Assembly: GCF_003334305.1 (NCBI RefSeq)
Contig: NZ_QOWS01000005.1
DNA length: 64,000 bases
Source of the DNA: Escherichia coli
GTDB lineage: Bacteria; Pseudomonadota; Gammaproteobacteria; Enterobacterales; Enterobacteriaceae
Reading direction: 5' to 3' (one strand)
The position numbers and the translations under genes are program-made. The notes below the pieces were generated by a model, which had not been told where the DNA came from, did no database searches, and worked only from the letters and a program-made list of their open reading frames with translations. How positions within the stretch are numbered: position 1 is the stretch's first letter; the number at the start of each line of letters is the position of its first letter. Of the stretch, positions 13,790-20,386 are shown in pieces.

Positions 13790-13926
13790 CGTGTAATGGC
13801 TGCATGAAATAAACAATAAAATATAAATAACATTATCAGCCTGCTGACGGCTTGAAGAGAGTCACAGTATCTTGTGCAACATTATTGGAAAGAGTGAGGG
13901 GCGAGGTAGCGAAGCGGAAAAATGTT

Positions 13927-14032
13927 AAAAAAAAGCCCATCGTGGGAGATGGGCAAAGACTACACACAGCAATTCGTTGTTTCACTCAGGGGATTTCCAT
14001 GCTTATAAATCAATATGTTGATTTATAACCGT
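13927..14032 (-). ncRNA. rprA: RprA small regulatory RNA
   Basis: Minus strand reads ACGGTTATAAATCAACATATTGATTTATAAGCATGGAAATCCCCTGAGTGAAACAACGAATTGCTGTGTGTAGTCTTTGCCCATCTCCCACGATGGGCTTTTTTTT, ending in a GC hairpin plus U-run; lies between ydiL and ydiK. Confidence 0.8.
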
Positions 14033-18775: not shown

Positions 18776-19182
18776 TATGGAAACGAAAAATCACCCTGGA
18801 AGCACTGAATGCTATGGGTGAAGGAAACATGGTGGGGTTGCTGGATATTCGCTTTGAACATATTGGTGATGACACCCTTGAAGCGACAATGCCAGTAGAC
18901 TCGCGGACAAAGCAGCCTTTCGGGTTGCTGCATGGAGGCGCATCCGTGGTGCTGGCCGAAAGTATCGGTTCCGTTGCCGGTTATTTATGTACTGAAGGTG
19001 AGCAAAAAGTGGTTGGCCTGGAAATCAATGCTAACCACGTCCGCTCGGCACGAGAAGGGCGGGTGCGCGGCGTATGCAAACCGTTGCATCTCGGTTCGCG
19101 TCACCAGGTCTGGCAGATTGAAATCTTCGATGAGAAAGGGCGTTTGTGCTGTTCGTCACGATTGACGACCGCCATTTTGTGA
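18772..19182 (+). CDS. menI: Hotdog-fold thioesterase (1,4-dihydroxy-2-naphthoyl-CoA hydrolase)
   Basis: 136-aa ORF whose ATG overlaps the ydiJ stop (ATGA). Confidence 0.8.
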   Translation: MIWKRKITLEALNAMGEGNMVGLLDIRFEHIGDDTLEATMPVDSRTKQPFGLLHGGASVVLAESIGSVAGYLCTEGEQKVVGLEINANHVRSAREGRVRGVCKPLHLGSRHQVWQIEIFDEKGRLCCSSRLTTAIL

Positions 19183-19281
19183 CGTTGTCACCAGAAAAGT
19201 GTGACGCATATTGCTTTTGGTCATTATCTGCACAGTAAACGGTGGTATACTGTGCAGGTCTTGTCTAAAAGCGAGGATGCT

Positions 19282-19470
19282 ATGTCTACTCAACTTGATC
19301 CCACCCAACTGGCCATTGAATTTTTACGCCGTGACCAGAGCAATCTTTCACCTGCCCAATATCTCAAACGTCTGAAACAACTAGAACTTGAATTTGCTGA
19401 CCTGCTTACTCTCTCTTCTGCTGAATTAAAAGAAGAAATCTACTTTGCCTGGCGTCTGGGCGTGCATTGA
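19282..19470 (+). CDS. ydiH: Small uncharacterised protein YdiH
   Basis: ORF frame 19201..19470; start chosen at MSTQLDPTQ (62 aa), preceded by a GAGGA Shine-Dalgarno. Confidence 0.55.
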   Translation: MSTQLDPTQLAIEFLRRDQSNLSPAQYLKRLKQLELEFADLLTLSSAELKEEIYFAWRLGVH

Positions 19471-19616
19471 TCCTGACTTAATGCCGCAAGTTCGCCAAAT
19501 CGACCTGGATTAACCTCCGTCCAGGTTCGATGACCTTCTTAATACTGCTTATCTACCGCCTGATATTGTTCAAAAATAATACTAATCGCAGTTTGTGTTA
19601 AAACGGCGGGTTAGCT

Positions 19617-19736
19617 TTATGAGATTATTCTTATCGCCCCTTCAAGAGCTAAGCCACTGAGAGTGCCGGAGATAAGCGCCGGATGGGGTAGAAACCCTTA
19701 AGCCTGTGTTGCACAGACTTAAGGGTTTTCTTATTT
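19617..19736. ncRNA. rydB: Candidate small RNA (possibly RydB) and strong intrinsic-terminator hairpin in the ydiH-sufA intergenic region
   Basis: Plus-strand hairpin CCCTTAAGCCTGTGTTGCACAGACTTAAGGG (19695..19725) followed by TTTTCTTATTT. RydB is reported between ydiH and sufA in K-12, but I cannot fix its strand or ends from sequence alone. Confidence 0.3.
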
Positions 19737-19954
19737 CTGAACGCTGCACTTTTTTACCTATCTCTTAAATAGTCATTTTCAATACAACTTTTTCTTTTTC
19801 ATCACAGCCTTAATGCTCCTTAGATAATAACCATTATCTAACAATGAGATACCTAATTCTTAGCGTGCCTGTTAACCCACACATCAGGGTCTATGCTTAT
19901 TAAAAGCAGGCAAAAAGCATGTTTTACGGTAAAGCCCCTGCGTTTGCTGGGTTG

Positions 19955-19975
19955 TACTGATAATCATTATCACTA
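19955..19975. promoter_or_regulatory. Fur box in the sufA promoter
   Basis: TGATAATCATTATCAC matches the Fur consensus GATAATGATAATCATTATC, about 50 bp upstream of the sufA ATG. Confidence 0.7.
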
Positions 19976-20017
19976 ACATGCTGTTATACGCTGAAAGCGA
20001 TGAAGTGAGGTAAATCG

Positions 20018-20386
20018 ATGGACATGCATTCAGGAACCTTTAACCCACAAGATTTCGCCTGGCAAGGCTTAACGCTGACACCCGCAGCGGCGATACACAT
20101 CCGTGAGCTGGTGGCAAAGCAGCCGGGTATGGTCGGCGTGCGCTTAGGCGTGAAGCAAACGGGCTGCGCGGGCTTTGGCTATGTGCTCGACAGTGTTAGC
20201 GAGCCGGACAAAGACGATCTGCTGTTTGAACACGACGGCGCGAAGCTGTTTGTCCCGCTGCAAGCGATGCCGTTTATTGATGGCACGGAAGTCGATTTCG
20301 TTCGTGAAGGACTTAATCAGATATTCAAATTTCACAACCCTAAAGCCCAGAATGAATGTGGCTGTGGCGAAAGCTTTGGGGTATAG
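20018..20386 (+). CDS. sufA: Fe-S cluster A-type carrier protein
   Basis: 122-aa ORF with C-terminal CGCGESF motif; ends in TAG. Confidence 0.9.

Follow-up and report, generated by a model that had tools for sequence, protein, structure and literature searches.

The DNA analyzed here, hereafter the window, is a 64,000-nt stretch from Escherichia coli. In the part of interest, the open reading frames ydiJ, menI and ydiH are followed by a 547-bp spacer (19471-20017) and then by sufA and sufB. The ydiH stop codon ends at 19470 and the sufA ATG starts at 20018, which confirms the spacer length given in a first-pass annotation of this DNA. The spacer is 100% identical to that of E. coli strain E2865, was found in 5413 of 5426 complete E. 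coli genomes, and differs in an alignment from that of K-12 MG1655 by two substitutions and no indels: one in the loop of the hairpin described below (T19710 here, C in K-12), the other a single base near the suf promoter. As the first-pass annotation had also said, the spacer contains the Fur box of suf—TGATAATCATTATCA, at 19958-19972, some 230 nt downstream of the hairpin. The features considered in this report are as follows.

19282-19470, + strand: ydiH, with ydiJ and menI the upstream open reading frames
19585-19604, + strand: conserved upstream block ATCGCAGTTTGTGTTAAAAC, predicted to be marbox-like (SoxS/MarA/Rob), in forward orientation and centered at -41.5
19620-19628, + strand: predicted extended -10 element TG-a-GATTAT, from conservation among orthologs
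19636-19696, + strand: mature RydB small RNA (sRNA, 61 nt), from the RF00118 match and the Term-seq 3' end
19636-19736, + strand: predicted primary rydB transcript (~100 nt), pieced together from its start and terminator
19691-19729, + strand: long stem-loop with 17 pairs, one C/A mismatch and a UUG loop, from folding and covariation
19726-19736, + strand: U-rich tract UUUUCUUAUUU, read directly from the sequence
20018-20386, + strand: sufA, with sufB the downstream open reading frames

A known sRNA gene in the ydiH-sufA spacer

The Rfam model of rydB, RF00118, matches the + strand of the window at 19636-19696 over all 61 positions of the model (1-61), scoring 81.6 bits (gathering score, 50; E = 9e-18), a full-model covariance score that places the sequence in the RydB family. 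The first-pass annotation had suggested that the hairpin might belong to RydB and had proposed a search with this model as a check, and its suggestion is upheld by the match, by the mapping of the K-12 gene and by the co-occurrence of the two elements in orthologs. The GenBank feature for K-12 rydB (b4430, also known as tpe7 or IS082), at 1764713-1764780 on the - strand between sufA and ydiH, maps to window 19624-19691; like the K-12 gene, the RydB reported here thus lies between sufA and ydiH and is codirectional with both, and locus, strand and sequence being the same, there is no biological difference between the two RydB genes. The sRNA is therefore an already known gene, annotated in K-12 since 2001, and the hairpin is probably its terminator; detection of RydB by array and RNA-seq has been reported in several papers.

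The hairpin begins exactly at the GenBank end of rydB, 6 nt before the Rfam match ends. Since it starts within the last 6 nt of the RydB match, and since it follows RydB in every ortholog, it is not the orphan that it had been taken for. A covariance model (R1) that we built from RydB plus the hairpin scores 119.7 bits on the + strand (19636-19741) and 28 bits on the - strand, the latter from the palindrome alone, which settles on + the strand that had previously been left undecided.

The annotated extents of the gene disagree: 68 nt in GenBank and EcoCyc (19624-19691) versus 61 nt in Rfam and Term-seq (19636-19696), so that the 5' ends are 12 nt apart and the 3' ends 5 nt. The complete terminator hairpin is contained in neither extent, and the GenBank 5' end falls inside the predicted -10 element. 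In Salmonella, rydB has been annotated as 105 nt (1450415-1450519; PMC2515195), a length that would include the terminator. In the 61-nt form, RydB consists of a 53-nt 5' domain closed by a GCCCC/GGGGU helix, plus an 8-nt tail, UAGAAACC.

Two short open reading frames were considered and rejected as evidence of coding potential. A 13-codon frame on the + strand (ATG at 19620) starts upstream of the putative transcription start and has neither its ATG nor its stop conserved, and a 35-codon frame on the - strand (19642-19749) runs across sequence without variation at any of the three codon positions. Separately, the 5' end of RydB (CCCCUUCAAG, 19637-19646) resembles the 5' arm of the hairpin (CCCUUAAG, 19695-19702), so that the 3' arm could pair with either; we take the resemblance to be a coincidence because it is lost in orthologs with a replaced stem.

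A long hairpin followed by a U-rich tract

The hairpin, GAAACCCUUAAG-C-CUGUG-UUG-CACAG-A-CUUAAGGGUUUU, comprises a 12-bp lower stem, the C19703/A19717 mismatch, a 5-bp upper stem and the 3-nt UUG loop. On its own (19689-19740) it folds at -22 kcal/mol, versus -8.2 +/- 2.5 kcal/mol for shuffled sequences (z = -5.55), and none of 200 shuffles is as stable. The long hairpin with a U-tract noticed by the first-pass annotation is thus real, and the distances given there are right: the hairpin starts ~221 nt past the ydiH stop, and the U tract ends ~282 nt before sufA. The tract has eight U in the 10 nt past the last G-C pair; it is interrupted (UUUUCUUAUUU), and four U at its start are themselves base paired, with the GAAA at the foot of the stem. 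The U tract is confined to the + strand; what follows the hairpin on the minus strand is just UUUCUACCCC.

The stem is long, since that of a typical E. coli intrinsic terminator has about half the 15-17 bp seen in RydB. It has sequence features of an intrinsic terminator, namely a stable stem-loop with a U-rich tract on the transcribed strand and, as shown below, compensatory change where a transcription unit ends. A scan of 19100-20100 for consensus promoters and terminators returned no terminator, and no promoter near rydB, under rules that accept neither internally mismatched stems nor promoters lacking a -35 element. The hairpin was missed because the rules do not tolerate its mismatch, and the result is not evidence against it. 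A 2025 survey has tagged rydB with a Rho-independent terminator (PMC12306157).

The structure of the stem is conserved across genera, not its sequence

The comparison was made by a scan anchored on YdiH, with one genome per species, which gave 78 loci. RydB was found in 29 of these, from Escherichia, Salmonella, many Citrobacter, Pseudenterobacter and one Leclercia metagenome-assembled genome. By blastn and covariance model, it was not found within 2.5 kb of ydiH in the other 48 loci, which include Enterobacter, Lelliottia, Kluyvera, Kosakonia and Trabulsiella and in whose genomes RydB may sit elsewhere; a Klebsiella homolog has been reported in the literature. All 30 of the 30 sequences with RydB (the window included, from at least five genera) show the same succession of 5' domain, 2-5 nt, a hairpin of 15-17 bp and a U-rich tract. 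The hairpins fold at -14 to -28 kcal/mol in these 30 sequences (median, -19). Of the 10 nt past the last G-C pair, a median of 8 are U, the tract being weaker (4-6 U) in 5 of the 30.

Covariation is concentrated in the hairpin. Eleven of its 17 pairs vary on both sides, three on one side only and three are invariant, with 94% of the cells in the hairpin alignment paired. Five measures of the whole structure—which span all 29 pairs, the hairpin giving 11 of the 13 that change on both sides—exceeded all 500 of 500 shuffles and all slid controls. In Citrobacter NCU1, Awk4, R56 and C. koseri, and in Pseudenterobacter, the stem has a wholly different sequence and the same length; these five alternative stems may go back to one or two replacements instead of a large number of separate compensations. 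It is the structure of the stem, and not its sequence, that is kept across orthologs. The 5' domain, on the other hand, is nearly invariant (44 of ~48 columns, 19640-19683), and its only compensatory changes are two in the closing GCCCC/GGGGU helix. Taken alone it folds no better than shuffled sequence (z = -0.01), and because it is almost invariant, covariation cannot choose between the Rfam structure and an alternative from RNAalifold.

A natural rearrangement was seen in E. coli SC434 (NZ_LR778142.1; locus L080, 1060-2503), where IS1397, an element of the IS3 family, lies between the 5' domain of RydB and the hairpin. The element follows ...GGGGTAGAAAC and has duplicated AAC; its insertion site corresponds to window 19693-19696 and is 1 nt away from the mature 3' end mapped by Term-seq. 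By its sequence, this is an allele in which rydB is naturally cut off from its predicted terminator.

The abundant form of RydB ends inside the stem

An RydB band of ~60 nt, a size that agrees with the 61-nt form, is reported to have been described originally by Wassarman et al. in 2001. In published Term-seq data (Adams et al. 2021, PMC7815308), a 3' end of rydB lies at K-12 1764708 on the - strand, with 2.2 and 4.1 million reads; the supplement has three entries for rydB, and this end is that of both of the two rows displayed. Coordinate mapping and the listed sequence from -50 to +10 both place it at window 19696 (...GGGGUAGAAACC-3'), which is where the Rfam model ends. Of the two ends that had been called unresolved, the 3' end of the abundant form is thus settled, while the 5' end is provisionally placed at 19636 by the start of the Rfam model together with promoter conservation (see below). 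The 19696 end falls on the sixth nucleotide of the stem's 5' arm, 7-8 nt past the closing helix of the 5' domain and 12 nt from the loop, with no U residues after it. It is the sole end reported for the region in the table as searched, which has none at the U tract (K-12 about 1764667-1764672); a short-lived precursor would not appear there. The RydB reads exceed those of lpp in the same table more than 10-fold.

Because the dominant 3' end is inside the stem, the mature 61-nt RydB is without its terminator, and a precursor of ~100 nt, later processed, would be expected. Processing could plausibly take either of two routes: cleavage within the long helix, by RNase III for instance, or cleavage at another site and then 3'-to-5' trimming up to a stalling point a few nucleotides past the helix of the 5' domain.

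These properties raise the question of whether the long helix is mainly a signal for processing or stability, such as an RNase III substrate, with termination secondary or taking place elsewhere. A stem that keeps to 15-17 bp throughout the orthologs, those with a fully replaced sequence included, and that is about twice the length usual in E. coli terminators, would be in keeping with this, as would a mature 3' end within the stem, 12 nt from the loop, and the table without a U-tract 3' end. However, a U-rich tract follows the stem in 25 of the 30 sequences, a feature superfluous to a signal for processing alone, and exonuclease stalling 7-8 nt past a helix, a concept described in PMC6061677, explains the end equally well. 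Moreover, a role in processing adds to termination rather than excluding it, and we regard it as unlikely that processing is the main role of the helix. In our preferred reading, which we consider well supported and probably correct, the hairpin is the Rho-independent terminator of the known + strand sRNA gene rydB, and the 61-nt RNA without terminator is processed from a longer precursor.

A candidate promoter upstream of rydB

Upstream of RydB, two conserved blocks lie at a fixed spacing, with 15 unconserved nt between them. The distal block, ATCGCAGTTTGTGTTAAAAC, is kept in 29 distinct orthologous sequences, the 15 nt that follow being unconserved. In the proximal block, TG-a-GATTAT, the TG and hexamer positions 2 (A) and 6 (T) are invariant in all orthologs and positions 3-5 vary, a pattern of conservation that is that of an extended -10 element, which we accordingly predict here. 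We take G19636 as the putative start because it is a conserved purine, base 1 of the Rfam model, located 7-8 nt downstream of the -10 element. Two other placements were rejected: a -10 element at TATGAG (19618-19623), whose first two bases vary among orthologs, and a start at the GenBank 5' end, 19624, for which the region where a -10 element would lie is unconserved.

The distal block differs by two mismatches from the marbox consensus AYNGCACNNWNNRYYAAAYN. Given the putative start at 19636, its geometry—forward, centered at -41.5 and within -36 to -55—fits the class II rule for promoters activated by MarA, SoxS or Rob, in which the -35 element is missing (PMC10268841, PMC12052159). The likeness to class II marbox promoters such as that of micF extends to a forward block near -41, no recognizable -35 element and a -10 element with TG. 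However, the match of the rydB motif is no better than chance in the window, where 16 sites with up to two mismatches occur versus 18 expected, with no enrichment. Because the match is at chance level, it is by position and conservation that the marbox is proposed, and our working hypothesis is that rydB could be driven by a class II SoxS/MarA/Rob promoter. From array data, RydB has been listed among SoxR-dependent, paraquat-responsive sRNAs (PMC2064960). The two marbox and ChIP studies searched do not mention rydB, and a Cappable-seq supplement has no rydB entry. Preprints propose effects of CRP, FNR and RcsB on RydB; judged by eye, the upstream block fits CRP or FNR at a single half-site, and this reading was set aside.

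rydB is found in different gene contexts

The surroundings of the RydB unit differ between genera. In Escherichia its neighbors are ydiH, ~165 nt upstream, and sufA. In Salmonella it is again ~165 nt past ydiH and 1.8 kb from sufA, from which it is split by a convergent gene for a transporter of the dicarboxylate/amino-acid:cation symporter type (GltP/DctA-related), the stop of which is ~11 nt from the RydB U tract (locus L023, 2977-4323). In ~18 Citrobacter loci it is 2 kb from ydiH and ~300 nt upstream of sufA, the DNA between ydiH and rydB carrying a gene for a Vmh-family MBL hydrolase on the - strand and one for a LysR-family regulator on the + strand (locus L007, 2757-4606). Intestinirhabdus alba has a ydiH-sufA spacer with the suf control region (from ~window 19757) and without RydB or its hairpin. 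As for ydiH, it has a hairpin of its own in the window, at 19499-19531 (+ strand), 29 nt past the stop and followed by a weak U tract, AUGACCUUCUUAAUA; the stretch 19471-19560 folds at -17.8 kcal/mol (centroid, -16.5), and this hairpin probably forms at the 3' end of the ydiH mRNA. In C. amalonaticus AUH, a canonical terminator directly follows ydiH and RydB is still present.

Since the unit and its promoter-like block remain intact in three contexts with different neighbors, the comparison argues for RydB and its hairpin being an independent gene rather than a part of the ydiH 3' untranslated region (UTR). The first-pass annotation had considered that the hairpin might end a long 3' UTR of ydiJ-menI-ydiH, in which case it would be the terminator of that operon, and RydB a fragment processed from the UTR. 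In Escherichia and Salmonella the short distance and common strand would permit this, all the more so as the poor U tract of the 19499-19531 hairpin makes some read-through plausible, the mature RydB 3' end is clearly processed, and the hairpin would also stop any transcript reading through from ydiH. In Citrobacter, however, rydB sits behind the hydrolase and LysR-family genes, a convergent gene among them, and yet keeps the upstream block and TGnGAnnnT at fixed spacing, and the unconserved 15 nt between the two blocks are what is expected of a promoter. C. amalonaticus AUH terminates after ydiH and has RydB nonetheless, and reads more than 10-fold those of lpp are hard to square with leakage from a minor operon. 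An sRNA derived from the ydiH 3' UTR would be without a promoter of its own and obligatorily linked to ydiH, which is at odds with the promoter-like block that accompanies RydB and with the distance from ydiH in Citrobacter. The Citrobacter separation, the upstream block and the hairpin that ydiH itself possesses leave this proposal unsupported as the primary role of the element, and we find it quite improbable.

Even less credible, indeed very nearly negligible, is an action of the element on the minus strand—termination or 3' stabilization of a convergent or antisense RNA, or termination in both directions—because, while the fold is slightly more stable there (-26.2 kcal/mol, the C/A mismatch becoming a U-G pair) and the convergent transporter gene of Salmonella stops ~11 nt from the U tract, the minus-strand hairpin is followed by UUUCUACCCC in E. 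coli or UUCCGGCCCC in Salmonella and not by U tracts, E. coli has no convergent gene here, several G-U stem pairs of the + strand would be A-C mismatches, and the model of RydB plus hairpin scores far lower on that strand (28 versus 119.7 bits).

Discussion

The picture suggested by these findings is that of a short transcription unit whose terminator does not persist in its product. Transcription would start at G19636 from a promoter composed of the extended -10 element (19620-19628) and the upstream block at about -41, would proceed through the 53-nt structured 5' domain, a linker of 1-2 nt and the 17-bp hairpin, and would end near 19733-19737, at the U tract. The terminator would then most likely be removed posttranscriptionally, by endonucleolytic cleavage within the stem or close to it and by 3'-to-5' trimming that stalls 7-8 nt past the GCCCC/GGGGU closing helix.

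A block conserved across genera, which starts ACCTATCTCTTAAATAGTCATTTTC (window ~19757-19790) and is probably the distal suf regulatory region, is located right 3' of the terminator. By stopping a very active rydB promoter from reading into this control region ~20 nt further on, the terminator would insulate suf regulation from rydB, for which its strength may matter. A need for strong insulation would also explain the length of the stem. An unusually long stem, kept at 15-17 bp even when its sequence is replaced, hints at a need beyond termination.

An abundant RydB without its terminator hairpin is unusual for an enterobacterial sRNA. In RprA and other Hfq-dependent sRNAs, the mature RNA keeps the terminator hairpin and U tail as an Hfq-binding module. 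RprA, itself encoded in the window (Rfam match at 13925-14032, - strand; 118.5 bits), resembles RydB in that a G+C-containing stem-loop and a U tract, with compensatory changes, end a short noncoding unit. It differs from RydB in its stem, which has 7 bp as opposed to 17, and in that the abundant form of RydB is devoid of the hairpin. RydB has been classed as Hfq independent, or as just 2.5-fold enriched with Hfq, and such a weak association fits an RNA without the module of terminator and U tail. A parallel for the 3' end is provided by the transcripts described by Dar and Sorek (2018, PMC6061677), in which steady-state 3' ends lie just past a protective stem-loop after trimming by 3'-to-5' exonucleases. 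The RydB end, 7-8 nt past the closing helix and with no U after it, is similar. In contrast to those cases, which are Rho-terminated mRNAs, RydB has a strong intrinsic hairpin downstream that would have to be cut or unwound first.

As to function, a lowering of rpoS expression by overexpressed RydB is repeated in papers, and a 2024 study lists RydB as being without known targets or transcription factors. The predicted anatomy of the promoter suggests a regulator for it. A bolder version of our reading, which we consider possible but doubtful, would have the 15- to 17-bp helix serve as a maturation module (through cleavage, for example by RNase III, and subsequent trimming) that frees a very abundant, Hfq-independent 61-nt RydB without terminator, expressed from a class II SoxS/MarA/Rob promoter beside the suf operon, which is induced by oxidative stress. 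If true, RydB, a poorly understood sRNA, would be tied to the superoxide and antibiotic-stress regulon.

Rfam has further matches in the window besides RydB and RprA. They are STnc550 at 46562-46952 (+ strand; 396.5 bits), two tRNA genes at 37689-37970, and an "antisense RNA," HPnc0260, the 3' part of which lies opposite a tRNA gene encoded on the other strand; this match therefore looks tRNA derived rather than a separate gene.
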